A stretch of 64,000 nucleotides of DNA from an uncultured Gammaproteobacteria bacterium (GCA_964470695.1 CAYYDR010000002.1:136401-200400), one strand, 5' to 3'. Positions 5,128-62,113 are shown, counted from the stretch's first letter. Numbers and translations: made by a program. Notes: a model not told the origin generated them from the sequence alone.

Positions 5128-5134
5128 GTTTGGT

Positions 5135-22027: not shown

Positions 22028-22058
22028 AATTTGGTTTTGTAAAATAAGAGATTCTCAT

Positions 22059-22084
22059 AAAAGAACCCGTCAAGGTTCTTTTTG
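22059..22084 (+). terminator. Intrinsic terminator after pilin copy 2
   Basis: aaAAGAACCCgtcaAGGTTCTTttt, a duplicate of the 21439 terminator with one change. Confidence 0.7.
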
Positions 22085-22152
22085 GTTAGTTTGGTTAAAA
22101 GTAGTTCCAGCTATCTTTTGTTGACTTAAGGTTTTTAGGCTATAATTTAGCT

Positions 22153-24532: not shown

Positions 24533-24561
24533 TTGGCAGTTAGGGGGAGAAATGGTATAAT
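24533..24561 (+). promoter_or_regulatory. Promoter of giant gene 1 (TTGGCA-N17-TATAAT with TGn extended -10)
   Basis: cTTGGCAgttagggggagaaaTGgTATAATttt. A near-identical arrangement lies upstream of giant gene 2 (48477..48505). Confidence 0.6.
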
Positions 24562-24594: not shown

Positions 24595-27500
24595 ATGTCT
24601 TTATTTTCCGGACGGAAATTAAGAATTATTTCTTCCACTTTTTTATTAAGTGTGGCTTTTTTATTTTGGCTATTTGTGCCGTCAGTTCAGGCTTTCCACG
24701 CTACTTCTTCCTACAACAAACCAACCAACGGAACTTTGACTTCGTCTAACTGGAATGATTTGTTTAGCGACTTCGTAAATACTTGGTTGCCGACAACCAT
24801 GAATGGTCCGCTTGGCATTGGGACGACTATCCCGCCCTCATCCGGTTTATTAGTTAATGGCCCAGTTAATGCTTTAAATATTTATTCTACTAGCAATGTC
24901 GGAATTGGGAAAACTAATCCCGGTTCAGCTTTAGATTTAATCGGCAGTATTAATTCCTCGGGAACAGTTAATGGCACGGGCCTCTGTATTGCTAATGATT
25001 GTAAAGTTTCTTGGCCAGCCGTCGGCGCGGCTTCTTCGGGCTGGACCCAGAGCGGACTAACCTTATATAAGACGGATGTAAATGGCAATGTCGGTATTGG
25101 TACGCCAACCCCGACTCAGAAGTTAACCGTGACCGGAATTATTGAATCTACTAGCGGCGGTTTTAAATTTCCGGACGGAACAGTCCAGATTACGGCAGGG
25201 GGCGGCGGAGCTAGCCAGTGGGTTTCCGCTTCGTCTACATCTATATATTATAATGGCGGTCGTGTCGGCATAGGGACAACTAATCCAGCCTCTACCTTAG
25301 ATGTCGGCGGTACGGGCATAACCTTAGGCGGCGTGACTAGAACGACTTGGCCAGGCGGCGCCGGTTCGGGCTTCGGTACTGACGCGGGCACTTACGCTTA
25401 TTACATGGGCGGCAATGTCGGTTTCGGCGTCACTAATCCGACTTCAAGATTGCAAATTTATACTTCCGCTGCTTACGACGGCATTTCAATTGACGGCAAT
25501 AATAGCCCAGCTTTTAAATTAATGAACTCAGGCGTGGCTAAGGGCTATATTGCTTTGCCATCCTCGGCTAATGTTTTTTCCAGTGATGCGGCCGCTAATG
25601 ATTTGGTTATTAGAACAGAAAATGTTTCGCAAAGAATTTTATTTAATGTAAATGGCGGTGGTGCCTCCATGATGGCTTTGAATAATGGGAATGTGGGGAT
25701 AGGGACGACTAATCCTTTGGGCAAATTACAGGTTGAATCAGTGGGCGGGGCTAATACGGGTATTAGATTAAATTTAACGAGTGGAGGCAGTTATGCTCCG
25801 ATTGATTTTTATACCCCGACGGGATTAGCTGGCCAGTTTTTAGCGACGGGCGCCACATTTACTAACGGCGGCTTTAAAGGAGACGAATTAATTTTAGCAA
25901 GCGAACTACCGGCCGGAGGGCTGCACCTTGGAGCAATAGGAGCGTCTGGTTATATTAAATTTACAGCCGGAGGCTTAGCTGAAGTTAATGAAAGAATGAG
26001 AATAAATTCGGCCGGAAATATCGGTATTGCCAAGACAAATCCAGGCACAACTTTAGACATCGTTGGCAGTCTGAGCGCCTCAGGAACTGTTAATGGTACT
26101 GGTCTTTGTATCGCTGGTGATTGTAAGGTTTCTTGGCCGACTATAGTGGCGGCGGGAGGAGGGAATCTCTGGAGTGGCACAACTACGGGCGCGATTTGGA
26201 GCGCTAATAGTGGGAATGTGGGCATCGGGACGACGGCGCCTGAAAATAGTGCGAAGCTAGATGTGAGAGGAAGAATATCAGTAAAAGAAGCCTCAAATGG
26301 AGAATTACAATTTGGGACAACCGCAAATTATGCATTCTTAGAAGCATGGGATGGATCTGCAGACAGAGATCCGAAACTACCTATTCTGTTAAACCCTTGG
26401 GGTGGCAACGTTGGAATAGGGACGACAGCGCCAACAAGTAAATTGCATGTAAAAGGAGATAATGCTTACTTATTAGTAGACAGTGCGGATTATAATAACT
26501 TTTATATTGGTCCAAGAGGATCTAGCGGTGTAGGCTTAGATAAGGCTTATCTGGAACTGAAAGACACGGGAGTAACAAAAATAGCGCTTGATTCTAATGG
26601 CAATACTTATTTCAACGGTGGTAATATTGGGATTGGAACAACAACTCCAATAAGCAAACTGAGCATTCAAGATGCTATTCGTACGGAATTATTAATTGAT
26701 GGCAATACTGGCGGAAGCGCTGATAGTTATGCTTCAGCCTTGGTTTTAAGAAGTAATACGGATTATAGAGGCCGAGGCGTCCTTATGAGTGTTAGAGATG
26801 CTACTGCTGAGTGGTATGCCGGCGTGCCTTATGAAGGAGGGAGCTATCAGATTGCTTATGATCCAACCGCTGGTCAGGGAGAATATAAGGCTAATGCTAA
26901 GTTATATATTAATACAGCTGGTAATGTTGGTATTTCTAAAACTGTTCCCGCGACCACTTTAGATATAGTCGGAGGAGTTAGTTCTACAGGCACAGTTAAC
27001 GGCACTGGTCTCTGTATCTCGGGTGACTGTAAGGTTTCTTGGGCAGCGGTCGGCGCGGCTTCTTCCGGATGGACTCAAAATGGCAATGAAGTTTATAAAA
27101 CAAATACAGCGGGGAATGTGGGGATAGGGACAACGAATCCACAAAGGAAATTACATATTTCCGGTGGAGCCGTATCGCTTGATAACTTTAAGCAATTAGG
27201 GTTAGCAAATTCTTCCGGAACTTTGGATTATTGGCAAATTTTCAGTAACCAGGGCAGCGCTAATGCGTATGGTCCGGCCGATGCATTTGTGATTTATGGT
27301 AATGGTGCTAGCCGTATGGTAGTGGATACTTCCGGCAACGTCGGCGTTGGGACAACAACACCTAGTGCTAAATTGGAAGTATATAATGCTGTTAACCGAA
27401 AAATAAAAATTGATCCGGGTAAAGCTTTGGATGTTGACGGCGAACCGCAGTTAACAATTAGGGAATTTGTCCCTGGCATTAAATTTGAGGATGCTAGTGG

Positions 27501-30500
27501 AGGGAGCACATCATGGCTAACTTTTGCTAATAGTAATAATTTTTATATTGGACAGTATACAGGGGCAGTTATTAGCAGTTCTAATACCTTTACTATAAAT
27601 AATTCCGGTAACGTCGGAGTTGGCACGACAAGCCCGGAGACAAAATTACATATTGCCGGAAATTCGGGGACATATACTAGCACGGGAGCGTCCGGCTCTG
27701 TGTTGTATGCTCAGACGACTGGGGCCAATACATACCCCATGAATGCTTACTTCAATGCCGCGGGTACTACTGATAATACTGTTCGTCATCGTTTTGCTAA
27801 TAATGGAGTGAATAAATGGCAAGTAAACTATAGCAACGATATTAATTGGTATTATGATACGCCTGGGACTGGGAGTTGGTCTCCTTCAGTTACATTTCAG
27901 CAGGGCGGAAATGTTGGTATTAATAAAAGTAGCCCAGCGACCACTTTAGATATAGTCGGAGGGGTTAGTTCTACAGGCACAGTTAACGGCACTGGTCTCT
28001 GTATCTCGGGTGACTGTAAAGTTTCTTGGGCAGCGGTTGGTGCGGCTTCTTCGGGCTGGACGCAGAATGGAAATGAAGTTTATAAAACAAATACAGCTGG
28101 GAATGTGGGGATTGGGACGACGGCACCTACATCTCGTTTAAGCATCCAAAATAGTGCAGCGTCTGATAACATACTTAGTAATTATGCAATTACCAATGGC
28201 AACAACGCTGCCACTTTTAGGACAAGTGATACTGGGCCAATATTTGGCATACATGCTCAAAATAATGGGGATATATATATAAAAGACACGGGTGACAATA
28301 TTTTATTTTATGGAAAGAATGGCGGCAACGTTGGAATTGGAACGACGAATCCTTTGGCATTACTTCATGTCAGCAAGAGTGTTGCTGGCGGTGACACATC
28401 TTTAATGATTCATAATACTGCTGCTACAACTAACAACAGTTCCGCCACATTAAATTTAGGCGTATGGTCTGGTTCGACACTAGCTAATCCTAGTGCACAA
28501 ATTCGTGCAATCAATGTTAATCAAAGTTATGGTTCAACAGATCTAACATTTGGGACACAAGCGAATGATGGATATTTATATGAGAGAATGAGAATAAATT
28601 ATGCCGGCAACGTCGGGATCGGGACAACAAATCCTGTTTATCTTTTGGATGTTAATGGCGCTGGTAGATTCGCTAGCGTGCTAACGGTGGGAGACTCTGC
28701 TCCAACTGTTTTGCAATCAAGTAGAGGTGCTACTGACGGGAGTCAGATATCTTTAGCTTCTAATTATAGCCCAACTGTAGGCGCTATGTATTCAAGTGCC
28801 GCCGCTTTCTTATCTAGTAATGCCAGACAGACGACCGGCGGGGTAGATGCTTGGGGCAAGGGGTCAGCTACATATTCGTCTAATTTAATTTCTTTAGGTA
28901 TCTCTACTGCTAATAATGGGACTGCTTTCCAAGTTAAAAATTCGCCAGCCAATACTGTTGGCGGGGCATATAGTAGTTTTTTCCCAAACACCTTGTTTGC
29001 TATTTTAGAAGGCGGAAATGTTGGCGTTGCTAAAGCTAACCCCGGAGCTACTTTAGATGTCACTGGCGGTATAAATGCCTCTGGCACAATTAATGGTACT
29101 GGCCTTTGTATAGGCGGTGATTGCAAAGTTTCTTGGGCGGCGGTCGGTGCGGCATCTTCCGGTTGGACTCAAAACGGAAATGAAGTTTATAAAACAAATA
29201 CAGCGGGAAATGTGGGCATTGGTACTACTAACCCAGGAACAAATAAATTACATATTTATAATGGAGCGTCTGGCTCAACGGCTTATGAGGCGGGGGGATT
29301 AGTAGTTGAAGATTCTAATAGATCTTCTATTTCCTTGCTTGCTCCTAATGCTAGCGATTCTTATTTATTTTTTGGCGACGCGAGTGCTGCCAATGCCGGT
29401 TATGTTGGACATTATGGGGCTACTATGAGTCCAGCTAATTTGATGGTTTATTATAGTGCTGGTAATCATGCTTTTACAGGCGGCAATGTCGGAGTTGGGA
29501 CAACTACTCCGACAGTAAAATTACATGTTCAGGGCAACACTGATACTATAGCGCGATTTGAAAATAGCGTTGCTAATAGTAATCCAGGGATTGAGCTCAA
29601 GAATGATGCGGAAACTTGGACTATGATGAACGCCGGAGCGCGCGCGGATAATTTTGAAATATATGATGTTGGTAGCGGTGCTACGCGTTTAGCTATCAAG
29701 CAGGATGGTAATGTCGGGATTGGGACGACGAATCCGACAGTATTTTCCAGTTTATTTCCCGCTCGTTTAGCCGTAGTCGCTTCAGGAGCGGCTGACACTA
29801 TTATTGCTAAAACAGATTCAGCTCAAACTAATGCGGCGGCCGGCGTCTTTCATCAATCTTCCCTTACTCCTGGATTTGATGCTTTCCGAATACAATCAGT
29901 CGCTACTTCCAGCACGATGGCGGTGTTAAATGTTTTATCCGGCGTTGACGATTCTAGTGGCGTGGGCGGGAGCAGCTTATTATTTGTTAGAGGAGATGGT
30001 AATATCGGCGTGTCCAAGGTTAATCCTGGGACAAAATTAGATGTGGTTGGCGGCATAAATGCCTCTGGAACGGTCAATGGCACCGGTCTTTGTATAGGCG
30101 GGGACTGTAAAGTTTCTTGGCCAGCGGTTGGCGCAGCCTCTTCTGGCTGGACTCAAAACGGTACGACGGTTTATAAAACTGATACGAATGGAAATATAGG
30201 AATAGGAATAACCGCCCCAACGGCAAAACTGCAAATTGGGACACAGGCGTATGGAACGGCGCCAGATGGTCAGCAATTCCAGGTCGGATTAGATAATTAT
30301 TCTGGAGCAGGGCCTGCGGCTGGAATAAGTGGCTATCCTATTATTGCTAACAAAGATCTCTACGCTTCGTCTATATTAGATGTAGTGGGTGGCTGGGAAC
30401 AGGCAAGTGCTAATCATCCGCTGTTAAGAGTGTCTGCTTACAATACTATAAATAGCACTCCGTCCTTTGTTGTTTTAAATAGCGGTAATGTCGGTATTGG

Positions 30501-32739
30501 GACGACGGCATTAAGTAATAAATTGACAGTAGGAGTTGCTGATAGTTCAATTACGCAGGCTAGCGGCGGAGCTGTCTTAAATATATTTAATAGTGATAGC
30601 ACTGTTAATAATTATGCCAGTATAGCCTTTGGTCAATCAGGGGCTGGTTCAAATAGTTTCTCCAGAATCGGGGTTCAGTACAGAGACCGAACAGGAAGTT
30701 CAGAGGATCAGGATATTTTCTTTAGCACTATAGGAGCGGGAAGCTATAGCGAGAAAATGAGAATTATATCTACGGGTAACGTCGGCATTGGAATAACAAA
30801 TCCAAACTCCCGCTTGCATAGTTATAATTTTACGGCCGATGGCACAACGGGCCGGACAAACATTATTGATGTTCTAACCTTGGAAACAGCTAATACTGCT
30901 AATGCTCCGTATCGTGGATTTGGGCAGGGCATAGAGTTTAGGGGGCGGACATATTCAAATAGCGCGGTCAGGACTTTAGGAAGGATAGCAACTGTTTTAA
31001 CTGATGATTCAATAACAAATACCGGCACCGCTTTAGTGTTCCAAAATGTGGCTGACTCAGCGACAGTAACAGCGCCTATTGAAAGAATGAGAATTGATTA
31101 TAATGGTAATATAGGTATTTCTAAAACTAACCCCGGCACAACTTTAGATGTAGTCGGCAGTATTAATGCCTCCGGCACGGTTAATGGCACGGGTCTTTGT
31201 ATCGGTGGGGACTGTAAAGTATCTTGGCCAGCGGTTGGATCAGCTTCTTCGGGATGGAATAGAACCGCTCCTTATATATATCCGGCGACTTTAACAGATA
31301 ATGTGGGGATTGGGACGACAAATCCTGGCACTTTGTTTGAAGTAAAAACTGGCGCAACGAGAAAAATTCAAATCGCTAATGGCAACGGAATTAATGCGGT
31401 CACGGGAGATTATGTAGGAGGTCTATTTATAGATAATTCTAATATATTAAATCTTCAATCTTATTTGGTTGGCACAGGGGGGCAATCTTTAGCACTTAAC
31501 GCTTTGGGCGGCAACGTCGGAGTTGGCACAACAAGCCCAATATATAAATTTGATGTTTTAGGTCCGGCCGGAGATGTAGCGCGTTTTACAAATGGGACAG
31601 AATCTCTAAGGGCATATTTAGGTAGTAGTTATAAAATTTTTCAAACAAATGCCAATGACCAGTTTGGATATGTAGGCAATCAATTCTATGTTACTGCGAA
31701 TGGCGGCACGGAAGCGGTTAGAGTAAATTTATCTGGAAATGTCGGAATTGGAACGACGGCGCCAGAAACTAAACTTGATGTTTATGGTGGGACAGATGCA
31801 AGCGCTACTATACAAGCGAGATATAATAGAACGAGTGTCGGAAACATTAGAACAATATTTAAAGCATTCCACCCAACATCAGGCAATTCCAGTGCAATTA
31901 TTGGTGCTGACTCAGGGAGCACTGATGTCCAGTTTGTGACTGGTGGAAGTACTCCGACCCAGTCTAAGATGACAATACTATCTGGCGGTAACGTCGGCAT
32001 TGCTAAAACTAACCCTGGCACAACTCTAGACGTAGTTGGCAGTATTAATGCCTCGGGAACAGTTAATGGCACCGGTCTTTGTATAGGCGGGGATTGTAAA
32101 GTTTCTTGGCCAGCAGTCGGCGCGGCTTCCTCAGGCTGGACTCAGAACGGCTCAGTGGTTTATAAGACTGACACGGCCGGTAATGTCGGTATTGGCACGA
32201 CAAATCCGACCGCGGCGAAATTAACTATCAGTGGCGATTTAAGCGCGACGGGCGCAACTTTAAGCGGCGCGTTAGTTATGAATGGCGGCGGCACTAAGCA
32301 AAATATTACCGGTGTTAATAAGCTAACGGTTGATGTTATTGACCCGTTATACTATATTAATGGTGTGAACTATTCTTCTTATGCAGCCTCTATGATCGGC
32401 GGCGTTAAGGAAGAATATGTTGGCAAAATAAAATTAGATAAGAAAAATAGGACAGTCCAGGAATTTGAAGCAACAATTGATTTTGCTGGCGCGGCTGAGG
32501 GCAGCGAATTATGGCTCTGGCGCAAGGTTGTTAATTTCAATAAGGATAATGTAGAAGTCTTAATAACGCCTTATGGTCGTTTCGCCCGCACCTATTATTT
32601 CTTAGACGGCGAGAAGATTATTTTCCGCTCTGATTTACCAGTAGAAATTTCCTATCGTTTAATTGGTAAGCGTTTTGACTGGCGCAAGTGGCCGACTCGC
32701 GCGTTAGATCAAGCAGAAAGGGGTATGGATGTGGAATAA
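24595..32739 (+). CDS. Giant secreted modular fibre/adhesin-like protein (2714 aa) with tail-fibre-like GNVGIGTTxP repeats and 8 Cys-x4-Cys junctions
   Basis: Continuous ORF. ATG at 24595 is preferred over TTG at 24571. Sec-type signal (…LFVPSVQA|FH). The first Cys codon of each junction is at 24985, 26107, 27013, 28000, 29107, 30091, 31198 and 32080. Unique C-terminal ~170 aa. Confidence 0.9.
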   Translation: MSLFSGRKLRIISSTFLLSVAFLFWLFVPSVQAFHATSSYNKPTNGTLTSSNWNDLFSDFVNTWLPTTMNGPLGIGTTIPPSSGLLVNGPVNALNIYSTSNVGIGKTNPGSALDLIGSINSSGTVNGTGLCIANDCKVSWPAVGAASSGWTQSGLTLYKTDVNGNVGIGTPTPTQKLTVTGIIESTSGGFKFPDGTVQITAGGGGASQWVSASSTSIYYNGGRVGIGTTNPASTLDVGGTGITLGGVTRTTWPGGAGSGFGTDAGTYAYYMGGNVGFGVTNPTSRLQIYTSAAYDGISIDGNNSPAFKLMNSGVAKGYIALPSSANVFSSDAAANDLVIRTENVSQRILFNVNGGGASMMALNNGNVGIGTTNPLGKLQVESVGGANTGIRLNLTSGGSYAPIDFYTPTGLAGQFLATGATFTNGGFKGDELILASELPAGGLHLGAIGASGYIKFTAGGLAEVNERMRINSAGNIGIAKTNPGTTLDIVGSLSASGTVNGTGLCIAGDCKVSWPTIVAAGGGNLWSGTTTGAIWSANSGNVGIGTTAPENSAKLDVRGRISVKEASNGELQFGTTANYAFLEAWDGSADRDPKLPILLNPWGGNVGIGTTAPTSKLHVKGDNAYLLVDSADYNNFYIGPRGSSGVGLDKAYLELKDTGVTKIALDSNGNTYFNGGNIGIGTTTPISKLSIQDAIRTELLIDGNTGGSADSYASALVLRSNTDYRGRGVLMSVRDATAEWYAGVPYEGGSYQIAYDPTAGQGEYKANAKLYINTAGNVGISKTVPATTLDIVGGVSSTGTVNGTGLCISGDCKVSWAAVGAASSGWTQNGNEVYKTNTAGNVGIGTTNPQRKLHISGGAVSLDNFKQLGLANSSGTLDYWQIFSNQGSANAYGPADAFVIYGNGASRMVVDTSGNVGVGTTTPSAKLEVYNAVNRKIKIDPGKALDVDGEPQLTIREFVPGIKFEDASGGSTSWLTFANSNNFYIGQYTGAVISSSNTFTINNSGNVGVGTTSPETKLHIAGNSGTYTSTGASGSVLYAQTTGANTYPMNAYFNAAGTTDNTVRHRFANNGVNKWQVNYSNDINWYYDTPGTGSWSPSVTFQQGGNVGINKSSPATTLDIVGGVSSTGTVNGTGLCISGDCKVSWAAVGAASSGWTQNGNEVYKTNTAGNVGIGTTAPTSRLSIQNSAASDNILSNYAITNGNNAATFRTSDTGPIFGIHAQNNGDIYIKDTGDNILFYGKNGGNVGIGTTNPLALLHVSKSVAGGDTSLMIHNTAATTNNSSATLNLGVWSGSTLANPSAQIRAINVNQSYGSTDLTFGTQANDGYLYERMRINYAGNVGIGTTNPVYLLDVNGAGRFASVLTVGDSAPTVLQSSRGATDGSQISLASNYSPTVGAMYSSAAAFLSSNARQTTGGVDAWGKGSATYSSNLISLGISTANNGTAFQVKNSPANTVGGAYSSFFPNTLFAILEGGNVGVAKANPGATLDVTGGINASGTINGTGLCIGGDCKVSWAAVGAASSGWTQNGNEVYKTNTAGNVGIGTTNPGTNKLHIYNGASGSTAYEAGGLVVEDSNRSSISLLAPNASDSYLFFGDASAANAGYVGHYGATMSPANLMVYYSAGNHAFTGGNVGVGTTTPTVKLHVQGNTDTIARFENSVANSNPGIELKNDAETWTMMNAGARADNFEIYDVGSGATRLAIKQDGNVGIGTTNPTVFSSLFPARLAVVASGAADTIIAKTDSAQTNAAAGVFHQSSLTPGFDAFRIQSVATSSTMAVLNVLSGVDDSSGVGGSSLLFVRGDGNIGVSKVNPGTKLDVVGGINASGTVNGTGLCIGGDCKVSWPAVGAASSGWTQNGTTVYKTDTNGNIGIGITAPTAKLQIGTQAYGTAPDGQQFQVGLDNYSGAGPAAGISGYPIIANKDLYASSILDVVGGWEQASANHPLLRVSAYNTINSTPSFVVLNSGNVGIGTTALSNKLTVGVADSSITQASGGAVLNIFNSDSTVNNYASIAFGQSGAGSNSFSRIGVQYRDRTGSSEDQDIFFSTIGAGSYSEKMRIISTGNVGIGITNPNSRLHSYNFTADGTTGRTNIIDVLTLETANTANAPYRGFGQGIEFRGRTYSNSAVRTLGRIATVLTDDSITNTGTALVFQNVADSATVTAPIERMRIDYNGNIGISKTNPGTTLDVVGSINASGTVNGTGLCIGGDCKVSWPAVGSASSGWNRTAPYIYPATLTDNVGIGTTNPGTLFEVKTGATRKIQIANGNGINAVTGDYVGGLFIDNSNILNLQSYLVGTGGQSLALNALGGNVGVGTTSPIYKFDVLGPAGDVARFTNGTESLRAYLGSSYKIFQTNANDQFGYVGNQFYVTANGGTEAVRVNLSGNVGIGTTAPETKLDVYGGTDASATIQARYNRTSVGNIRTIFKAFHPTSGNSSAIIGADSGSTDVQFVTGGSTPTQSKMTILSGGNVGIAKTNPGTTLDVVGSINASGTVNGTGLCIGGDCKVSWPAVGAASSGWTQNGSVVYKTDTAGNVGIGTTNPTAAKLTISGDLSATGATLSGALVMNGGGTKQNITGVNKLTVDVIDPLYYINGVNYSSYAASMIGGVKEEYVGKIKLDKKNRTVQEFEATIDFAGAAEGSELWLWRKVVNFNKDNVEVLITPYGRFARTYYFLDGEKIIFRSDLPVEISYRLIGKRFDWRKWPTRALDQAERGMDVE

Positions 32740-32821
32740 GAAAAATAGACGCGGGGTAGGTTAAAAAATAAAATAACTAAAAACTAAAAAATTAATAAAT
32801 TTACATAATAATAAAAAATTT

Positions 32822-33499
32822 ATGGACACCAAGAACAAAAAAATGTGGATACTCCTGGGAGTAGTGGTCGTCATTGTGATTATTATCATAGTGGCTGTTA
32901 CACAAAACCAGAAGACCACTAGCGAACCAGGCGCCGCTCAGACGACTGGTGAAAATGGCCAGTCTCCAGCCGCGGGTGCTGATGACACGCAGGCTCCTAT
33001 TGACCTGACCAAAAATGGCCCGACTGATTCAACCGCTCCAGTCAATGCGACTGGCACCGTTGATATGCGTGGGGCTAAGGCGGAAATTCCGGGCGCCAGC
33101 TTAGTTACAACCGATAAAAAGGTTGTGACCGCAGATGGCAAAATCGCTCAGAACGACGCTATTCCAAATACCCCGCAAGCGCCTAAGCCGGTTTTAGTAG
33201 ACAAGGCGCAGTTAACCAAGCAGGTTATTAAGTTAGAAGTAGGCGGCGGAAAGATTACGCCAAATACTTTTACTGTTCCGACTGGCGCTCCGGTTTCTTT
33301 AGCGGTTAGCTCCAGTGATAGTCAGGTACACGTCTTTATTTTCACTAACTCTGCGGTCGGCGCCATTGCTATGGGCGTTGGTCCAGGCGAGACTAAGGCA
33401 ATTACCTTTAACGCTCCAGCCGCTGGTGAATACGTCTTCCGCTGTGACGTTCCTGGACACTCCGCTTCTGGCGAAGTTGGTAAGATGATTGTTAAGTAA
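32822..33499 (+). CDS. Membrane-anchored cupredoxin-like protein with a plausible type-1 Cu ligand set
   Basis: N-terminal TM, a low-complexity linker, then a ~100-aa beta domain ending YVFRCDVPGHSASGEVGKMIVK (Cx2PGH...M pattern), with an upstream His in SQVHVFIF. Confidence 0.65.
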   Translation: MDTKNKKMWILLGVVVVIVIIIIVAVTQNQKTTSEPGAAQTTGENGQSPAAGADDTQAPIDLTKNGPTDSTAPVNATGTVDMRGAKAEIPGASLVTTDKKVVTADGKIAQNDAIPNTPQAPKPVLVDKAQLTKQVIKLEVGGGKITPNTFTVPTGAPVSLAVSSSDSQVHVFIFTNSAVGAIAMGVGPGETKAITFNAPAAGEYVFRCDVPGHSASGEVGKMIVK

Positions 33500-33529
33500 G
33501 CATCTTTTCCAGTTTGTTAAAATACAAGA

Positions 33530-54500: not shown

Positions 54501-57500
54501 GCTTATCCTTGCAGCCGTTTGGGGGCAACGTCGGGATTGGAACTACAACACCAGCCTATAAATTAGATGTGGTCGGTAGTATTAATTCGGGAGCTTTAGG
54601 AACTAATGGGTCAATTTATCTTAATAGTGCCGGTGATGGATTAGGTGGAGCTAGCCTTACTTATAGTAATACAAACAATACCCTGACTATTGGGCAGAAT
54701 AGAGGTTTGGCTTCTAGATTTTTAATGAGTAGTACGGCTGGGATTGAATTTCAGACTGAAGATAGTACTTCGCCTTACAACAAAGTTACTAGGATGATTG
54801 TTAGACATGGGGATGCTGGTAATGTCGGGATCGGAACAACTCTTCCAGATCAGACTCTACACGTTGCAAGTGCTGGAACAAGAGAGGGTTATTCAGCTTC
54901 TGCAGTTTTCAGCGATACAGCCGACAAAACAAAGGGTGTATTTGTTGGTTTTAATTCCACCTCAGATTATGGGCTTATTGCCGCTTCGGACCTGGGCACA
55001 TCTTGGAAGAATGTTATTATTCAACCGGTCGGAGGAAATGTCGGTATCGGAATAACAAATCCAACAGCACGTCTTGAAATAAAAGGAGTTGGCGGAACAA
55101 CCGGGAAGACATTCCGTCTAACCGATAACCCTGGCAATGAAATTTTTTCTGTTCAAGATGGAGGCGCAGTTGCTGTTAATTATGGTCCGTTTAGTGTCGG
55201 CACTAGCATGTTGTATGTTAATTATGCTTCTACTAACGTTGGTATTTCCAAGACTAACCCCGCCACAACTTTAGATATCGTTGGCAGTCTTAGCTCTACC
55301 GGAACTTTAAACGGAACTGGTCTTTGTATCTCTGGCGACTGTAAAGTTTCTTGGGCCGCGATTGGTTCGGCCAGTGCTGGTTGGAATAGAACGGCGCCTT
55401 ATGTTTATCCAGCGACTTTAACTGATAACGTCGGTATCGGAATAACTAATCCACAAGCGCCTTTAAATACTTATGCGGCGCCGACCGCGGGATTTGTAGA
55501 GCAGATTAGAGTAGGTGGGACAAGCAATTACCCTTCTTTGACTATGGGTACGTATGGTTCATATGGCGGTTATATTGCGACTTATGGCAATGAAATGTAT
55601 TTATATGCGGGTAATTGGCGAACGGTAGGTAATACAGCGACCGAAGACCATCGCATTTATTTCCATACTAGTAAAGCGGGTTCTACTAACTGGAGCACAC
55701 CTAAGATGACTTTGAATCAGGATGGTAATTTGGGGATTGGGACGACGGCACCAACAAAAACATTACACGTCGTTGGAGATGTGAGAGGTGGAACTTATTA
55801 CAATACAAATTCTGGAGATGGTTGGTTGTTAAACCAAGACTCAGGAACAAACAGAGGTTTGTATTATTACAACACTGCTGGAACTTGGGATTTCTTTGAA
55901 GGAGGAAGTTCAAAAGTAACAATCAGCAACACTGGTAATTTACAAATAGATGGAAAACTTTCAGTAGATGGATCTTCAAATAGTTACATCATGGGAAACG
56001 TCGGAATTGGTACAACCGCGCCTAAAACAATTTTACATACTGGTAAATTTACTGGCGGTTCTGGCGGCATTGATGAAGTTATGAGAGTAACGGGAGATTA
56101 TACGGCGTTAGGCAGTGGAGCATTATTAAGATTTACTAATCAACATGATTCTGGCACTAATCCAAACGCTGGAGAATATAATTTGGGTGGCATCGCCGGT
56201 GTGGATGATACTAATAGCTGGGGAGCTTCTTTAGCGTTTTATACGGCACCGTCAACAGCTAATGGTGGCAACTTAACCGAAAGAATGAGAATTAAATCCG
56301 ATGGCAACGTCGGCATTGCCAAAACTAATCCTGGTACGGTATTGGATGTTGTTGGCGGTGTTAACTCTACCGGTACTTTAAATGGCACTGGCCTTTGTAT
56401 CTCGGGTGACTGTAAAGTTTCTTGGGCAGCGGTCGGCGCGGCTTCTTCGGGCTGGAGCCAGAATGGTAATGAAGTATATAAGACAAATACAGCGGGGAAT
56501 GTGGGGATTGGGACGACTGCACCAACTCAGAAATTACATGTTGGTGGTAGTGGTGTGAATATTCAAATCGGCGATACTGGTGGTGGCGCATTATATTTCA
56601 ATAATACAAGCAATAATATTTCTTATAATGCAAATCAATTCCAATTCAATACTACTCAACCAGCTGGATTCACATTCAATGGAGGCAACGTCGGCATCGG
56701 AACAACCGCGCCAGCTTATAAATTAGATATACAGGGCTCAGCTTGGAATAATATCGCGCGCATTTATTCAACTGGAAGTTCCAGTGGCTTAGAGTTTTAT
56801 GATACTAACGGAACAAGACGGGGTGTCGCCTATAGTGATTCTAGCGGTTTCGGTTTGTTAAATAGTGCTACTAGTTGGGCGGTCAGAATACCTTATGGAA
56901 CTGGTAATGTTGCTATAGAGAACGGTAATTTAGGGGTCGGCGTTTCAAACCCGACGCAGAAGCTAGATGTTGTCGGAAATATAGAGCTTGGTGCCGCGGT
57001 TGGCACGACAAGATATATAGTAACAGATGAAACTAATACCGGAACCGGGAAAATTACTATGCAGGCTGGCGCTGGTTCAGCGGCTTTTGGCGGCGGTATT
57101 AATTTATATGCTCAGACACATGCTACTAACCCCGGCTGGGTGCAGGTTGGTATTGGTTCTGGGGCGGGAAGTGGAGCGACAGAGGGAAGATTCTCTGTTA
57201 ATAATCAGGGTCTCGGAGGGGGGACTGATATTTTCACGGTTCTAAGATCTGGTAACGTTGGTATTGCTAAAACTAATCCGGGAACGGTATTGGATGTTGT
57301 CGGCGGCGTAAATGCGTCGGGTACTCTTAACGGCACTGGTCTTTGTATCTCGGGTGACTGTAAAGTTTCTTGGGCAGCGGTCGGCGCGGCTTCTTCAGGT
57401 TGGACTCAGAATGGTAATGAAGTTTATAAGACGAGTACAAGCGGAAACGTCGGTATTGGTGTAACTAATCCGGCTAATACTTTGCAAGTTGGCTCTGTCG

Positions 57501-60500
57501 GAGCGACTGGCTATGGCGGAAATGAGTTTGTAGTAGGGGATGGAACTAATGTATTTGCTCTTGATGTCTCAGCTGGCCGAACTAATTTTTATACAAACGG
57601 TAACTATACTTTTGTTCCATCCGGCGGCAACGGAAACGTCGGTATTGGTATTACTAATCCTTCCGCCACTTTACATGTTAATGGCCCGACTAGAGCGAAT
57701 AATAGGATTGATTATTATTCCGCGACTACTCCTGGCACTACATTAGCCGGGCAAATCGGTTCTAATGATGATATTGGTTTAACCGGCGGCGGGACAGCTA
57801 ATTCTTTGGCGGTGAAAGTTCAAGGCACTTTTGCTTTGTCTACAAATAATAGTGCTACGCCGAGTTTGCTGGTTAATACATCTAATAACGTCGGAATTGG
57901 GACCACTAATCCCATCGCTAAGTTAGATGTCTCCGGATATGTTAAGAGTAAAACCGGTTATTTAGATAAGAACATGTTAGATACGACTGTCTGGAACATT
58001 GCTACTGGTAGTATAGGAGGCTTTGGCGCCAATGGTTCTGCGGCTGAGAATGAAAGAGCCTGGGATGCTGATCCATTTGGAAGACCGGCCACGATTTGGC
58101 GTTCAGTTAATGATGCTGCTAGCGATGGGGATGGTGGTTGGGATTATGGAAATATTCCAGTTGATCCTAATAAGGCTTATCGTTCATCAGTCTGGATTAA
58201 GAAAGATAATACGGGCAGTGGCTCAGTTTATTTGGGCTGTAGTGGTAGTAATACTTTAAATTTAAATGGTACAGCTAACACCAACCCCTATTTCTTCTCC
58301 TTCGGCTCAAGCAATTTAATTTCCGGTCGCTGGTATTTATTGGTTGGATATATTCATGCTAATAACGATGCTAGTACTGGCAGTTATTCAGCCGTTTATG
58401 ACGGCGTGACTGGGAAGAAGGTATTAACCGGCACCGATTTCAAGAATTCTACTGGCAACACACAAGTTCATAGAACATATAATTACTATGATGTTAATGT
58501 CGGTTCAGTTCAGACTTTCTGGGGCCCGAGATTTGAAGAGATTGATGGTAATGAGCCAACTATTGAGGCTTTGTTAGGCAGCTATCAAGCGTCAACTAGA
58601 GACGGGGTTGCTTATTTCGGCGGCAATGTTGGTATTGCCAAAACTAATCCGGGAACTAATTTTGATGTAGTCGGCGGTATAAGCGCTAGCGGTACAGTTA
58701 ACGGCACCGGTCTTTGTATAGGCGGCGATTGTAAAGCTTCTTGGGCGGCGATTGGTTCGGCCAGCGCTGGTTGGAATAGAACGGCCCCTTACATTTACCC
58801 AGCAACTTTGACGGATAATGTGGGTATCGGGGTGACAAATCCGAGTGCTAAATTAGAAATAGCTTCTGGCTCTACTTATGCTATCAATATAACCGGAGCC
58901 GGCTTAAATCAGGGCGCTCCAGCTGGTAATTACGATCATATAATAACCCCTCGAGTGAGAATTGGTTACATGAATGGAACTAACATCGGCACCATTGCCT
59001 CTAATGCGGCTGACTCTGGATTATCTTTTATTACTCATTCCGCCGGGACTGGTTGGGTTGAAAATTTAAGAATACAACCTAATGGTAATGTTGGTATTGG
59101 AATAACTGCTCCGGTTGCTAAGTTGCACCTTGAAACTAGCGGGGGAATTACTTTGCCGGCTTTAGATGGATCTATTAGGGCTATAGTTGAGGATGCAACT
59201 CAGGCTTCTATATTAGTTGCAGCCGCTAATAACAGCAATATTTTATTCGGTGATGCCGGGTCTTCTGTTATTGGCAGAATAACTTATGATCATACAAATG
59301 ACTCTATGCAGTTATGGGGAGCAGGCGCGGAAAGATTAAGAATAGATTCGGCTGGTAAGATTGGGATAGGGACAACGGCGCCAGTAGCAAGACTAGACGC
59401 CAGATACACGTCTTATAACATGGCAAACTATCCGTTGTTTGTAGGTAACACTGCTTATTCATATGCTCATGTTAATTATGATACGGCCGTGATTCAACAG
59501 GATGATGTTACTACTTTAAGAATGGTTGAATATAATAATGGTGGGACTAATCAAGAGTTAGGCTTTGAAGTCGGTGATGGCTACAGTAACATTACTAGCT
59601 CTGTCCCATTACGTTTCTACGGCGGAGCGAATCCAGGAGCGACTATTTATAGCGGCGCGGCTGGTACTTTAGCTATGGCTATAAATGTTGGCAACGTCGG
59701 TATTGGAAAGACAAACCCAGGGACTACTTTAGATGTTGTTGGCGGAGTTAATTCATCGGGCACTGTAAATGGTACGGGGTTATGTATTAGCGGTGATTGT
59801 AAAGTTTCTTGGGCGGCAATTGGTGCGGCTGGCTCTGGTTGGAGTCAGAATGGCACGACTTTATATAAGACTGATACGGCCGGGAATGTTGGAATAGGGA
59901 CGACGGCGCCAGGGGAGAAACTAGATGTTCGGGGAAATATTTTGTCTAAGGCAGCCGCTAGCGGTAATACTTGGGGGGTGTATTTGAGATCACATGCAGA
60001 CTCTTTAGTAGGAAAATTTGAGATTGCTGGGTCAGAAACTAGCCACAACGGAACTTTAGGACTGGTTTCAAATAATAGTTTGGATATTGTGACTGGGAAT
60101 GTATCTAGAATACATATTAATGAAACTAGTCCTGGCAATGGCAACGTCGGTATCGGCGTAGCTAATCCTCAGGCCTTATTGCATGTTGCTGGAGAAATGG
60201 TTGTTAATTCTGGCAATTGGTACACTGGTCGTAATGCGGGCGGCACTAATCAGCCTTTAGTTAGAAGTAGAGGGGCAGGATATCAACAGACCAGTTATCC
60301 TGGAATTCAGCTTGGCCAGACTGGAGATCATATTGCGATGTTTATTGATCCGGTTTCAGTTGTTGGCGGGTCGTTTAATGGAAATTTAAATGAAATATTT
60401 TTGCCTAATAATGTTAGATTCTTGCAGGCCGACAGTGCGGGGACTAATTGGCTATATAGTGGGGGAGGTACTTTAGTTTTAGATAATGGCAATGTCGGTG

Positions 60501-62113
60501 TGGCTAAGAGTAACCCAGCTACTAATCTAGATGTTGTCGGTGGAATAAATTCAACTGGCACAGTTAATGGCACCGGTCTTTGTATCTCTGGTGACTGCAA
60601 AGCTTCTTGGGCAGCGGTTGGTTCAGCGAGCGCCGGTTGGAATAGAACCGCTCCTTATGTTTACCCAGCGACTTTAACGGATAATGTGGGAATCGGAGTG
60701 ACAAATCCAGGCAACAGGCTTGATGTTTATAATGATTCCGCGACTTATAATCCAACTAGTTACAATGTTGCTGGAATGACTTTAAGAACCGCAGCTGCCG
60801 CCGGAGATTTTTCAGGCATAAGATTTACGGCAGCTGGAGCGAGAGAATCATTCTTCGGCGTCGTCGAAGGGGCGGCGTCCAATAAAAGTAATTTTGTTTT
60901 TCAGGGTTATGACGGAACCTCTCTCTCCTATAAAGAGTTTATGCGTATAAATGATACCGGCAACGTCGGGATTGGAACAACGAACCCATTGGCTAAGTTA
61001 AATTTAGTTGGAGAGACAGCCTTTACTTATCCGACTATGGGGACAGGGGCCGGTGTTATTCATCTTAATGCCCCGACCGTTAATGATAATACTGCGGCTA
61101 TAACTTTTGGTGGAGTAGGCACTACAAATTTAGGACAAGCTGGTATATATGTTCAGAGTTCAGGCTCCTATGGGACTAGAATGCATTTTGGAACCACTGG
61201 GTCATATGCGACAGGGGCATCTGCTAGAATGACAATTGATTGGACCGGCAACGTCGGTATCGCTAAAACTAACCCCGGAGCTACTTTAGATATTGTCGGC
61301 GGTCTTAACGCCTCTGGTACAGTTAATGGCACGGGGCTTTGTATCGGCGGTGATTGCAAAACTTCTTGGAGCGCTTTGGGAGCCGCTTCTTCCGGCTGGA
61401 CGCAGAATGGTAATGAGGTTTATAAGACTAATACAGCGGGAAATGTGGGGATAGGGACGACAAATCCGACAGCAAAATTAAATGTAGAAGGCATGGCTAG
61501 AATTACAAATGGTCATTTAGATGTTAATACAGATAATTATGGAGTATATTTTGGTAATGGTGATGCCTTAATAAGGGAGCAAGCTTATAATTTGAAATTT
61601 GAAAATTATAACGGTTCGGCCATGATTGAAAATATGCGTATAACCGGTACTGGCAACGTCGGTATCAGCATCACTAACCCTTCTCAAAAATTAGAAGTAA
61701 GTGGCAATATTAAGAAAAATAGCAAAGTCTGGGGCTCTAAATCCGTCCAGGTTACTACTTCTTGGACAACAGTCTTAACTTTATCTTTACCAACTAGCCA
61801 TACTAGTGCTAATGTCAGTCTTAATTATGGCGGTTCTGATTGGTGTGGGCATAGTGCCGCTCCTAATTATCAGGCTAAATATATAGTTCGTAACGGTGCA
61901 GGTGGCTATGGTGATCCAGGTTCTATTATTTCCGAGTTTAATGATATGGGTACCCAGAATGATTACTTCCAGAGTCAAATAGTTAATGCTGGTAGCGGCG
62001 TCTTTAATATTCAAATCAAGATTAATGACGGCGGCGATGGTTTCCCATGCGGCTCTGCTCCAGCCCTGCCGTTAGAGTATGATGTTGATGGTAATTACGC
62101 GAGTGTAAGCTAG
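48554..62113 (+). CDS. Giant secreted modular fibre/adhesin-like protein (4519 aa), paralog of 24595..32739, with 12 Cys-x4-Cys junctions
   Basis: Continuous 13.56-kb ORF. The N-terminus is paralogous to giant 1 (MSLFPSRK..., ...EEWNNLFRDFVNTWLPVSLNGPVGIATP). Junction Cys codons are at 50210, 51242, 52211, 53162, 54209, 55325, 56396, 57344, 58715, 59783, 60581 and 61340. Confidence 0.9.
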   Translation: MSLFPSRKSKFYLAVLVLSGGFLFSLSAVKPAQALYSTSTYQKLYSEVLTAEEWNNLFRDFVNTWLPVSLNGPVGIATPAPVAGLSVNGPILATGNVGIGSTNPTAKLDVIPSSGNYALLAGSYKIGNVALPLIASDAATKGYVDSLLGAGSLPTATIGQTMRYDGASWISNSLLYNNGTNIGIGITNPSAKLEIAPASGNYALLAGSYKIGNVALPTVDADAATKGYVDSFVNSSIATATGSIAVLWGGTTGGNVWSLNSGNVGVGTATPGSKLSIYNNGPDFNIPVQIQPSANTKESALGFIPAGAVSGANTTWTIGRAYNANRFSIRTWDGTTDAERLVMNSSGNIGIGTTGPGRLFDVNGMSRFRDSLYFGAADDKGLISWGGSPEGLVVRGSTAKALYLGSNNTNQVTIDTAGNVGVGTTNPVIQLDVSSGSNFKQLALRNTYGSQVMWAGSVADTVGSFIANNAYYTSSYWFKPNYSAASGINFRSDGGTEFFNDTGLTSGTDYLPTKRMTILSNGNIGVAKASPSATLDVTGSISSSGTVNGTGLCISGDCKVSWPSIVSAGGGNLWSGTTTSAIWNGNGTNNVGIGTTAPTKKLEIQGGTATSGANNFALKLKGTYGGTDWTGILFGATHSDSYNKGGIIFRATDGSNLRGQLQFLLNDVADSATGVTANTDAKMVVDYGGNVGIGTTAPGSKFQIQGGALQINNASSNGGAVIKLLGSNTNKNWMISNQQNFAGLEITPSTAAGGSTFTTPVLLINDSGNVGIGTTTPVAKLDVVGAIRSSDSSIWTLNLGTNTVGGNIAGQIKATYSPSYGYTGKLSFNVLTNGVGTDYGPTEEMYLEVLGADTKVGKLVILPFGGNVGIGKTNPSTVLDVVGGISSTGTVNGTGLCISGDCKVSWAAVGSASAGWNRTAPYIYPATLTDNVGIGITNPAADLVIQNTGANNTQLWLQNTGTGITEIGFDAANGDFAGSDYMSLGQTDALDGYIKMFANAGRFHIDTGSAERLTILQNGNVGIGTAGPDTSLNVFGTVGSGVLSPQEDLLHVGGNELGGIGGYAGIRIGGTSDSRYYNYIRSVKTTSYGNYWNSDLAFGVTRTGTANTFDEVLRVTSGSNVGVGTTAPSATLHVQNGGGGQVFRVTNAAGSFGFGVDTLGGYAQASGGGGGMWFYNSAGSGYIGVNGAGNIGIAKTNPTTTLDIVGSLSSTGTLNGTGLCISGDCKVSWAAVGSASAGWNRTAPYVYPATLTDNVGIGITNPTRKLEISGGASYPLEVYSSQRYLIGLRNTADTGGGWWFGDEATGDFFLHENGVGDRVTVQNATGNVGVGTTNPNFKLTVSGVTGSSQYYADSTNVETVSGTYTPTKMVYAFNEGRGLGYNAADDRIFFAMNEGIPMVIDNGGTVGIGTTTPTYGKLQISGGNIVVNRPLNKVDNANVSELPAFEINNAFAAGQAGYVRVYYPTYNNLLFGADYDGNIGGAQPNIQFGRVSTPYLTIVNNGASLGNVGIAKTNPGAALDIVGSLSSTGTLNGTGLCISGDCKVSWAAIGAASSGWSQNGNEVYKTATAGNVGIGTTAPASKLSVYDSGSAQSAFEVSDTSNYRLLINTGGNDGLDFYNGASLRFNADAGGLNMWSGYALTGINDYLVLKDHSSRSYGIDIQTYDGASYTSKLRVMNSGNVGMGITAPTAPLHIVDTGGATTTPNTALILDYESDTTSMAGGGTAIEFRGKSSGGNLANYQQARIRSVSYDSNNSHGIAFDYKPNAATALTEAMRINNGGLVGIGLTNPGYTLDVNGTLNVAGANPIRMNGWWFANYDSTTGGANGTFKFGPSQDIDANFVNGGASRLYIDASTGNVGIAKTNPGATLDVVGSINSTGTVNGTGLCIGGDCKASWAAVGAGSSGWSQNVNEVYKTNTAGNVGVGTTAPGAKLNLIGPNAAPNIGNESLRIEGTGTSDWLNFGVDGTNRVGWIRAVRNGTGENSLSLQPFGGNVGIGTTTPAYKLDVVGSINSGALGTNGSIYLNSAGDGLGGASLTYSNTNNTLTIGQNRGLASRFLMSSTAGIEFQTEDSTSPYNKVTRMIVRHGDAGNVGIGTTLPDQTLHVASAGTREGYSASAVFSDTADKTKGVFVGFNSTSDYGLIAASDLGTSWKNVIIQPVGGNVGIGITNPTARLEIKGVGGTTGKTFRLTDNPGNEIFSVQDGGAVAVNYGPFSVGTSMLYVNYASTNVGISKTNPATTLDIVGSLSSTGTLNGTGLCISGDCKVSWAAIGSASAGWNRTAPYVYPATLTDNVGIGITNPQAPLNTYAAPTAGFVEQIRVGGTSNYPSLTMGTYGSYGGYIATYGNEMYLYAGNWRTVGNTATEDHRIYFHTSKAGSTNWSTPKMTLNQDGNLGIGTTAPTKTLHVVGDVRGGTYYNTNSGDGWLLNQDSGTNRGLYYYNTAGTWDFFEGGSSKVTISNTGNLQIDGKLSVDGSSNSYIMGNVGIGTTAPKTILHTGKFTGGSGGIDEVMRVTGDYTALGSGALLRFTNQHDSGTNPNAGEYNLGGIAGVDDTNSWGASLAFYTAPSTANGGNLTERMRIKSDGNVGIAKTNPGTVLDVVGGVNSTGTLNGTGLCISGDCKVSWAAVGAASSGWSQNGNEVYKTNTAGNVGIGTTAPTQKLHVGGSGVNIQIGDTGGGALYFNNTSNNISYNANQFQFNTTQPAGFTFNGGNVGIGTTAPAYKLDIQGSAWNNIARIYSTGSSSGLEFYDTNGTRRGVAYSDSSGFGLLNSATSWAVRIPYGTGNVAIENGNLGVGVSNPTQKLDVVGNIELGAAVGTTRYIVTDETNTGTGKITMQAGAGSAAFGGGINLYAQTHATNPGWVQVGIGSGAGSGATEGRFSVNNQGLGGGTDIFTVLRSGNVGIAKTNPGTVLDVVGGVNASGTLNGTGLCISGDCKVSWAAVGAASSGWTQNGNEVYKTSTSGNVGIGVTNPANTLQVGSVGATGYGGNEFVVGDGTNVFALDVSAGRTNFYTNGNYTFVPSGGNGNVGIGITNPSATLHVNGPTRANNRIDYYSATTPGTTLAGQIGSNDDIGLTGGGTANSLAVKVQGTFALSTNNSATPSLLVNTSNNVGIGTTNPIAKLDVSGYVKSKTGYLDKNMLDTTVWNIATGSIGGFGANGSAAENERAWDADPFGRPATIWRSVNDAASDGDGGWDYGNIPVDPNKAYRSSVWIKKDNTGSGSVYLGCSGSNTLNLNGTANTNPYFFSFGSSNLISGRWYLLVGYIHANNDASTGSYSAVYDGVTGKKVLTGTDFKNSTGNTQVHRTYNYYDVNVGSVQTFWGPRFEEIDGNEPTIEALLGSYQASTRDGVAYFGGNVGIAKTNPGTNFDVVGGISASGTVNGTGLCIGGDCKASWAAIGSASAGWNRTAPYIYPATLTDNVGIGVTNPSAKLEIASGSTYAINITGAGLNQGAPAGNYDHIITPRVRIGYMNGTNIGTIASNAADSGLSFITHSAGTGWVENLRIQPNGNVGIGITAPVAKLHLETSGGITLPALDGSIRAIVEDATQASILVAAANNSNILFGDAGSSVIGRITYDHTNDSMQLWGAGAERLRIDSAGKIGIGTTAPVARLDARYTSYNMANYPLFVGNTAYSYAHVNYDTAVIQQDDVTTLRMVEYNNGGTNQELGFEVGDGYSNITSSVPLRFYGGANPGATIYSGAAGTLAMAINVGNVGIGKTNPGTTLDVVGGVNSSGTVNGTGLCISGDCKVSWAAIGAAGSGWSQNGTTLYKTDTAGNVGIGTTAPGEKLDVRGNILSKAAASGNTWGVYLRSHADSLVGKFEIAGSETSHNGTLGLVSNNSLDIVTGNVSRIHINETSPGNGNVGIGVANPQALLHVAGEMVVNSGNWYTGRNAGGTNQPLVRSRGAGYQQTSYPGIQLGQTGDHIAMFIDPVSVVGGSFNGNLNEIFLPNNVRFLQADSAGTNWLYSGGGTLVLDNGNVGVAKSNPATNLDVVGGINSTGTVNGTGLCISGDCKASWAAVGSASAGWNRTAPYVYPATLTDNVGIGVTNPGNRLDVYNDSATYNPTSYNVAGMTLRTAAAAGDFSGIRFTAAGARESFFGVVEGAASNKSNFVFQGYDGTSLSYKEFMRINDTGNVGIGTTNPLAKLNLVGETAFTYPTMGTGAGVIHLNAPTVNDNTAAITFGGVGTTNLGQAGIYVQSSGSYGTRMHFGTTGSYATGASARMTIDWTGNVGIAKTNPGATLDIVGGLNASGTVNGTGLCIGGDCKTSWSALGAASSGWTQNGNEVYKTNTAGNVGIGTTNPTAKLNVEGMARITNGHLDVNTDNYGVYFGNGDALIREQAYNLKFENYNGSAMIENMRITGTGNVGISITNPSQKLEVSGNIKKNSKVWGSKSVQVTTSWTTVLTLSLPTSHTSANVSLNYGGSDWCGHSAAPNYQAKYIVRNGAGGYGDPGSIISEFNDMGTQNDYFQSQIVNAGSGVFNIQIKINDGGDGFPCGSAPALPLEYDVDGNYASVS

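Follow-up and report, generated by a model that had tools for sequence, protein, structure and literature searches.

Cys-loop connectors between the variable bodies of two giant fibre-like proteins in a Patescibacteria genome: protein constraint and probable sporadic recombination

Background

The stretch of DNA analysed here (64,000 nucleotides, CAYYDR010000002.1:136401-200400 of assembly GCA_964470695.1; hereafter the window) encodes two giant paralogous proteins, giant 1 and giant 2, in which a connector of approximately 74 codons (junction) is repeated between long variable segments (bodies), and it raises the question whether these junctions are alike at the DNA level as a consequence of protein need or as sites of module exchange. 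An initial annotation of the sequence proposed ongoing gene conversion or recombination among the junctions, permitting deletion, duplication or swapping of modules within and between the two giants and the downstream glycine-rich-domain (GRD) genes, i.e. a recombinational specificity switch with the logic of pilin or tail-fibre cassettes. We propose that the connector is kept mainly by the need of the protein and that recombination has sporadically taken place in it, altering the number of modules over evolutionary time, without its being a programmed switch; we consider this explanation probable, with considerable room for doubt. The earlier interpretation is partly supported, the mechanism being plausible and documented in relatives, and the words "ongoing" and "specificity switch" go beyond the evidence.

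The window is part of a cellular genome, that of a bacterium of the Patescibacteria (Candidate Phyla Radiation, CPR). Patescibacteria are mostly episymbionts with tiny genomes, and the function and diversification of the giants bear on host recognition. Among the window genes found in Pfam scans, which covered 38 open reading frames (ORFs) of at least 150 amino acids (aa), are those of PilM/PilB/PilC, pilins, ThrRS, YbeY, and FemAB. Both giants adjoin type IV pilus genes, and approximately 22 kb of the genome is taken up by the two.

Results

The connector and its copies

Twenty in-register, in-frame copies of the connector were found in the giants, eight in giant 1 and 12 in giant 2, together with two junction-like N-terminal domains downstream (Table 1); the initial annotation had counted six copies. 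The connector consensus is GNVGIAKTNPGTTLDVVGxxxxxGTVNGTGLCIxGDCKVSW...GNVGIGTT (motif GNVGIAKTNPGTTLDVVG..GTVNGTGLCIxGDCKVSW..GNVGIGTT), with a Cys-x4-Cys loop, two invariant Trp residues, and GNVGIGTT-type fibre motifs at the edges. There are three forms of its C-terminal half, i.e. A (n = 12), B (n = 6), and C (n = 2). All 21 copies returned by a motif scan of both strands lie on the + strand as direct repeats, and the g5 copy is also located in a + strand ORF. Giant 1 is arranged in the order of signal/transmembrane (TM) N-terminus, eight junctions with seven variable bodies between them, and C-terminal domain.

The closest pair and the shared core

The segments 26950-27135 and 27937-28122, annotated as about 93% identical, agree at 174 of 186 positions (93.5%). 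Since the 62 encoded residues are the same, all 12 differences are synonymous. The high-identity tract extends from approximately 26947 to 27132 and collapses within 15-30 nucleotides (nt) on each side, where flanking 15-nt windows match at only 2-5 of 15 positions, the level of random sequence. The approximately 800 bp between the two segments had been called unrelated, which holds for the DNA (unalignable) but not for the protein, a distant homologue (25-35% identity) of the other bodies. Among the junctions of the window, the only patch with identity of at least 88% is 216 nt in length.

The core sequence said to recur in both giants was confirmed at some of the positions listed. A 41-nt core is present with no more than three mismatches at 27010, 27997, 56393, and 57341 (expected number 0), and the two giant 2 copies, with 27010 and 27997, have 1-2/62 mismatches. 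The copies at 29104 and 30088, by contrast, have 11/62 and 9/62 mismatches; they are 82-85% identical to the core, include a Ser to Gly change, and are no closer to it than many other copies.

Synonymous divergence and codon sharing

Over the first 44 codons of 190 junction pairs, the mean nucleotide identity is 74%, and the mean proportions of nonsynonymous (pN) and synonymous (pS) differences are 0.13 and 0.63, respectively. In a random-codon control, in which the codons of each copy were redrawn from module-body codon usage, pS was 0.76 +/- 0.01. The claim of shared synonymous sites is therefore true of a few pairs, where the sharing is strong, and much less so of the average pair. The ratio pN/pS is approximately 0.2 in the junctions, and the best pair has a nonsynonymous divergence (dN) of 0 over its 62-aa tract. 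When all 74 codons are considered, no more than two pairs depart from the rest, 26920/27907 (pS 0.29) and 56303/57251 (pS 0.49), both of them physically adjacent, and strong synonymous excess is confined to these two pairs and to the core common to four copies across both genes.

At identical residues, junction copies share the same codon 1.34x as often as expected from codon usage (bootstrap confidence interval 1.17-1.55), against 1.04x in 133 aligned body pairs and 1.07x in conserved GNVGIG motifs inside the bodies; the bodies, with 25-35% protein identity to one another, are fully saturated at synonymous sites. Equal synonymous divergence (dS) of junctions and bodies, which would have spoken against the initial annotation, is thus not seen, although the excess is small. 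Codon sharing peaks in the junction core (codons 31-51, 1.4-2.0x) and is 1.35x after the five closest junction copies are dropped. Many of the codons that are uniform across the copies are not the preferred choice (CTY for Leu, 19/20 copies vs 13% usage; ATC for Ile, 11/20 vs 11%; TCT for Ser, 19/20 vs 26%), so translational selection is an unlikely cause of the excess. Within the window pS is 0.62, compared with 0.70-0.72 to genomes of similar G+C content at equal pN; part of the excess is thus specific to this genome, a signature of weak concerted evolution. Concerted evolution at the level of the gene was considered and rejected: pS is 0.59 and 0.63 within the two genes, not lower than the 0.63 between them.

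Both the protein constraint and the modest synonymous excess are direct observations, and we conclude that the DNA similarity of the junctions results mainly from strong purifying selection acting on the protein, together with common descent. Conservation of the protein might even account for everything, if the copies were old duplicates, the excess were codon retention or preference, the 93% pair were simply the youngest duplicate, and neither conversion nor crossover had occurred in this genome. The near saturation of pS and the low pN/pS agree with such a history, as do the diffuse nature of the excess, which does not depend on the close copies, its partial presence between genomes, and the weakness of the mosaic test at third codon positions. 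A young duplicate, however, should carry its body along, and the bodies beside 26920 and 27907 are DNA-unalignable and synonymous-saturated; moreover, the non-preferred codons, the lack of excess in the GNVGIG control motifs, and the real junction crossovers in relatives described below are not expected from protein conservation. We regard it as possible but doubtful.

The peak at codons 31-51, where TGT AAA GTT TCT TGG is nearly invariant across all 20 window copies, could also be attributed to a nucleic-acid element in the Cys-loop core, such as an mRNA structure, a translational pause site or a recognition sequence. Other genomes (L002, L005, L006) use other codons at the TGT AAA GTT TCT columns, so there is no universal nucleotide constraint, which largely refutes this idea. 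A conserved RNA structure was rejected as well, since the RNAalifold fold of 18 copies (222 nt) reached only -9.4 kcal/mol and showed negligible covariation, and neither an inverted repeat nor a cognate enzyme was found. An element of this kind is very improbable.

Mosaic tracts and exact matches

A run-length mosaic test (GENECONV-like) was carried out without the unalignable flanks, which inflate significance. Values of p<0.01 were obtained in 6/66 type-A pairs (0.7 expected) and in 10/153 pairs (1.5 expected), and 56303/57251 is the only pair of global significance (p=0.02-0.03). Mosaic tracts occur between giant 1 and giant 2 copies too. The longest in-register exact match between two junctions has a median of 15 nt, is 25 nt or more in 15/190 pairs, and reaches a maximum of 56 nt.

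Exchange at junctions in related genomes

A module duplication and differences in module number, of the kind that the initial annotation expected from the junctions, are seen in relatives, and no recent event was found in the window. In L005, from a Patescibacteria metagenome-assembled genome (MAG SO_2017_LW4_128, JBAZJV010000001.1), positions 2400-4060 and 4080-5740 are 100% identical, a perfect 1,680-bp in-frame duplication of two modules. In a three-way alignment the middle junction (J2) matches J3 exactly as far as column 257, the sequence upstream included, and matches J1 exactly once column 244 is reached. J2 is a clean chimera, and the crossover behind it, an unequal one of reciprocal type, joined two junctions inside 14 nt that they share. 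Since an overlap of 14 nt is below any assembler k-mer, we infer that the chimera must exist in the reads.

Two further genomes carry identity that is limited to junctions. L092, a giant of 3,523 aa whose junction is divergent, contains four copies with patches of approximately 210 nt that are 88-96% identical, the bodies between them being unalignable, and in L006 a 182-nt patch is 89.6% identical between copies 4.9 kb apart. As at 26920/27907, such junction-only identity fits gene conversion.

Giant 1 orthologues in syntenic surroundings, with no same-species strain among them, differ in length: 798 aa in L033, 2,714 aa in the window, and 3,188 aa in L093. The L033 orthologue contains two junctions and one body. 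A simple junction-to-junction deletion was considered for it and set aside: the 5' end of its only body is similar to body 1 and the 3' end to body 7, which makes the history of this orthologue ambiguous, and our claim for L033 is limited to a different module number. The interior of the L093 orthologue is only 30-35% identical to giant 1, even though the pilB/pilC DNA next door is 73% identical. L005 and L006 are syntenic, yet they have little in common beyond junctions and gene ends. Between related genomes, then, only junctions and gene ends can be aligned, the bodies being hypervariable.

The L093 locus (GCA_027356705.1, DAHVXM010000001.1:447571-477137) is syntenic with the window but rearranged: the pilin-like cluster found before giant 2 in the window is located, in L093, directly upstream of a single giant 1 orthologue, and no second giant was found within the 10 kb fetched downstream. 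In L004 (MAG SKS1.bin72), a 136-nt piece of a body (12614-12749) is 98.5% identical to sequence of the next gene (15106-15241). The two adjacent fibre genes may recently have shared this body segment, which is truncated where the contig ends.

Exact look-ups of both giants found them on record from one NCBI contig only, and the contigs obtained by scanning metagenomes with the C-terminal domain were mostly short. The Logan contig L031 (SRR13723396) is 100% identical to window 31290-37278; it breaks within junction copy 7 and, at its other end, within the repeats of a third giant ORF (see below), and SRR13723396 probably holds the same population.

Homogenisation of the copies, or a wrong order of modules, could in principle have been introduced during metagenome assembly, from which the window derives, and the independent k=31 assembly does break inside a junction. 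The longest exact junction match (56 nt) is nevertheless under usual assembly k-mers and read lengths, the bodies are unique, the Logan contig agrees perfectly over its length, and the differences among copies are in-frame and synonymous, as in real paralogues. Such an artefact is very improbable.

A possible specificity switch through frequent exchange

If the junctions were in active use, modules would frequently be deleted, duplicated or swapped within and between the giants and the GRD genes, and the locus would act as a specificity switch. Some of the data lean that way: the two L005 duplicates show no divergence at all over 1.66 kb, which makes at least one event very recent; L092 has its junction-limited identity of 88-96%; mosaic tracts are common to both giants; and bodies are hypervariable between related genomes. 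The window itself speaks differently, with a mean junction identity of 74%, a pS of 0.63 (most pairs near saturation), a median exact match of 15 nt, equal pS within and between genes, and no recent duplication or swap among 22 bodies; "ongoing" exchange in this genome is not borne out. Exchange with the downstream GRD genes likewise found no backing, their copies being only 67-75% identical to the junctions of the giants. As all copies are direct repeats, a reciprocal crossover of giant 1 with giant 2 would remove the approximately 16 kb of genes that separate them.

The machinery of a switch was not seen either. Silent cassettes are absent; each giant has a promoter-like site of its own, and the modules are in-frame in intact ORFs. 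Pfam scans of the 38 window ORFs found no recombinase, invertase or reverse transcriptase. Shufflon-type or other site-specific recombination was rejected for want of inverted copies and of a recombinase in those scans, and a diversity-generating retroelement for want of a reverse transcriptase domain in the window; in the best pair, all 12 differences fall at third positions and comprise changes of every kind, with no adenine specificity. Taken together, an active switch appears unlikely.

Protein type and distribution of the connector

Neither giant has a Pfam or NCBIfam match, and no S74 chaperone domain was detected in them by Pfam scan. A body segment matches the beta-helix region of the Bdellovibrio mosaic adhesive trimer (MAT) fibre Bd2133 (PDB 8ond, E=2.4e-8, phmmer; also 8ojn and 8oml). 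The 1,679 sequence homologues include several named "tail fiber domain-containing protein", of the widespread GNVGIGTT type. By sequence the giants are assigned to the beta-helical GNxGIG-repeat fibre type, and they are probably trimeric adhesive surface-fibre proteins. An AlphaFold2 monomer model of a junction-body-junction unit was poor (predicted local distance difference test score, pLDDT, 65).

The connector domain is undescribed and rare. A PDB profile search with the junction gave only a chance antibody match, no solved relative being found. A junction-core profile matched 351 of 1.84 billion cluster representatives at E<=1e-3 and 62 at E<=1e-10, among them giants with up to 14 copies. 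Nearly the same connector peptide is present in proteins of other genomes (e.g. P0004, L001-L007). The close relatives found in genomes, and every occurrence found of the Cys-loop motif, come from Patescibacteria or from unclassified bacterial MAGs. A phage origin was rejected, the motif being found in 0/51 related viral contigs recovered from IMG/VR (2.9 million viral contigs). The connector domain also serves as the N-terminal module of short proteins, as in P0003.

Gene features and neighbourhood

The coordinates of the giants, their junctions and the associated features are given in Table 1. The promoter-like sites of the two giants are paralogous (repeat family D20) and near the consensus, TTGGCA-17-TGnTATAAT. 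Because of the position of its promoter-like site, translation of giant 1 is predicted to start at ATG 24595 and not at TTG 24571, and the NCBI record (313-kb contig) carries the product in its 2,714-aa form. The giant 2 protein is identical to P0121. The N-termini with signal peptide are paralogous between giant 1 and giant 2.

Table 1. Features of the two giant genes and of the junction-like domains downstream in the window
Feature	Coordinates	Strand	Remarks
Giant 1	24595..32739	+	2,714 aa from ATG 24595; ORF open from TTG 24571 (2,722 aa)
Giant 1 promoter-like site	24533..24561	+	TTGGCA, 17-nt spacer, TG-extended TATAAT (11/12)
Giant 1 junction copy 1	24892..25113	+	type A
Giant 1 junction copy 2	26014..26241	+	type C, 2 codons longer
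Giant 1 junction copy 3	26920..27141	+	type A; includes 26950-27135; closest partner is copy 4
Giant 1 junction copy 4	27907..28128	+	type A; includes 27937-28122
Giant 1 junction copy 5	29014..29235	+	type A; 29-nt exact tract (codons 55-64) common with copies 3 and 4
Giant 1 junction copy 6	29998..30219	+	type A
Giant 1 junction copy 7	31105..31326	+	type B, WNRTAPYIYPATLTDN variant; independent Logan contig breaks inside at 31290
Giant 1 junction copy 8	31987..32208	+	type A; directly before C-terminal domain; position conserved in orthologues L032 and L033
Giant 2	48554..62113	+	4,519 aa; paralogue of giant 1; 12 junctions; different C-terminal domain
Giant 2 promoter-like site	48477..48505	+	hexamers and spacing as at giant 1
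Giant 2 junction copy 1	50117..50344	+	type C
Giant 2 junction copy 2	51149..51370	+	type B
Giant 2 junction copy 3	52118..52339	+	type B
Giant 2 junction copy 4	53069..53290	+	type A
Giant 2 junction copy 5	54116..54337	+	type A
Giant 2 junction copy 6	55232..55453	+	type B
Giant 2 junction copy 7	56303..56524	+	type A; shared core; exact match of 56 nt with copy 8 and 38 nt with 27907
Giant 2 junction copy 8	57251..57472	+	type A; shared core
Giant 2 junction copy 9	58622..58843	+	type B
Giant 2 junction copy 10	59690..59911	+	type A
Giant 2 junction copy 11	60488..60709	+	type B
Giant 2 junction copy 12	61247..61468	+	type A
Glycine-rich-domain protein ORF	62119-63483	+	opens with junction-like domain
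Junction-like N-terminal domain, ORF 62119-63483	62224..62355	+	one codon shorter than the junctions of the giants; 67-75% DNA identity to them
ORF running off window end	from 63522 (63522-64000)	+	opens with junction-like domain
Junction-like N-terminal domain, ORF from 63522	63621..63752	+	76% identical to copy at 62224

In the two ORFs downstream of giant 2 (62119-63483 and 63522-64000), a TM/signal segment precedes the junction-like Cys-loop domain. The former is very glycine-rich after this domain, with a weak ALK_LTK_GRD match under the Pfam cut-off.

A third giant ORF (35638-41868, +, 2,076 aa) is made up of Cys-rich tandem repeats of approximately 750 nt, with a weak Disintegrin-like match under the Pfam cut-off; its counterpart in L093 is only 1,301 aa. 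The repeat segments 37768-37907 and 38518-38657 are 100% identical over 140 nt, a homogenisation more recent than in any fibre junction. Directly 3' of pilC are two tandem pilin-like genes with the N_methyl motif (20949-21407 and 21533-22027), a recent tandem duplicate or converted pair (20964-21470 vs 21584-22090, 90% identical over 507 nt). The ORF 42098-44080 (+) encodes a 660-aa protein with a papain-like peptidase match and a C-terminal Por_Secre_tail (type IX secretion system sorting) domain, a surprising find for a Patescibacteria genome; L093 has an equivalent gene.

Discussion

In the explanation that we favour, a Cys-loop connector of approximately 74 residues separates long, fast-diverging beta-helix-like bodies. 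Short-tract gene conversion may homogenise the junctions only, and occasional unequal crossing-over within junctions would duplicate or delete whole modules, both by general recombination at short stretches of identity and on evolutionary time. Sporadic exchange of this kind could account for the differences in module number and content among orthologous giants. One clean crossover in a relative and the variation in module number among orthologues are observed; that the same process shaped the junction pairs of this window is what we infer.

Several points weigh against this explanation. The window holds no recent event, its best pair having a pS of 0.29 and none of the 22 bodies being duplicated or shared, and the L005 duplication is known from a MAG assembly. 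The mosaic test is weak when restricted to third codon positions, with global p mostly >0.05, and the effect of adjacency is borderline (p=0.055) and driven by two pairs. Part of the synonymous excess is also present between genomes (0.70-0.72 vs 0.76 for random codons) and could be old position-specific codon retention instead of conversion. As to the protein, the trimeric fibre nature derives from one sequence match to a MAT fibre, beside a monomer model of low confidence.

A more far-reaching version of sporadic exchange at junctions would give the connector a dual role as structural node and homology box, with populations continually making fibres of differing length and binding content on ecological timescales. 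Diversification on such timescales is hinted at by the L005 duplication because of its zero divergence, and if true, the dual role would mean that episymbiotic CPR bacteria diversify their host attachment by a modular system arranged in series. We rate it as rather unlikely.

The giants resemble pilE/pilS and shufflon/invertase switches only in the abstract logic of conserved segments bracketing variable ones. Unlike pilE/pilS, they lack silent promoterless cassettes, all 20 copies being in-frame in two intact ORFs with promoter-like sites, and the identity of their junctions is far below that of such systems (median exact match 15 nt). The inverted repeats of shufflon/invertase switches have no counterpart among the copies, nor has their recombinase among the 38 window ORFs scanned.

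A closer likeness is to the tail fibres of T-even phages, in which, as Tetart, Desplats and Krisch reportedly described in J Mol Biol in 1998, gp37/gp38 contain "His boxes" and glycine-rich motifs, and recombination at the conserved motifs swaps adhesin specificity. In common are a fibre-type protein with small conserved structural motifs alternating with variable segments (junction pN 0.13 vs 25-35% aa identity of bodies), an exchange point within a conserved motif (in relative L005, not in the window), and general recombination leading to mosaicism on an evolutionary scale. The giants differ in being cellular (Patescibacteria) genes and not phage genes, in having as conserved unit a 74-residue Cys-loop domain with up to 12-14 repeats in one ORF, and in their variable segments of 180-380 aa, which are arranged in series rather than at the tip.

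MAT fibres of Bdellovibrio bacteriovorus are chimeric trimeric adhesins with conserved N-termini and exchanged C-terminal parts (PMC10769870). They are linked to the giants by the match to Bd2133 and by GNxGIG-type repeats in both; unlike the giants, MAT proteins are approximately 1,000 aa in length with one variable tip, and no Cys-loop junction has been described in them. Periscope and other repeat-length-variable proteins are surface proteins whose repeat number shifts by intragenic recombination between similar DNA repeats (PMC8201768), and the giant 1 orthologues likewise vary in length, 3- to 4-fold. Periscope repeats, however, are whole tandem domains of very high DNA identity, a level not reached in the window and reached transiently in L005 (100% duplicate), whereas in the giants only the 222-nt connector is similar (mean 74%) and the 0.5-1.1 kb bodies between all differ. 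Since the bodies all differ, gain or loss of modules would change content and not just length. Module change by general recombination at conserved connectors is plausible but ordinary, its logic being long known for mosaic phage tail fibres and repeat-variable surface proteins; here the same logic is seen in a family of giant Patescibacteria proteins that is uncharacterised.

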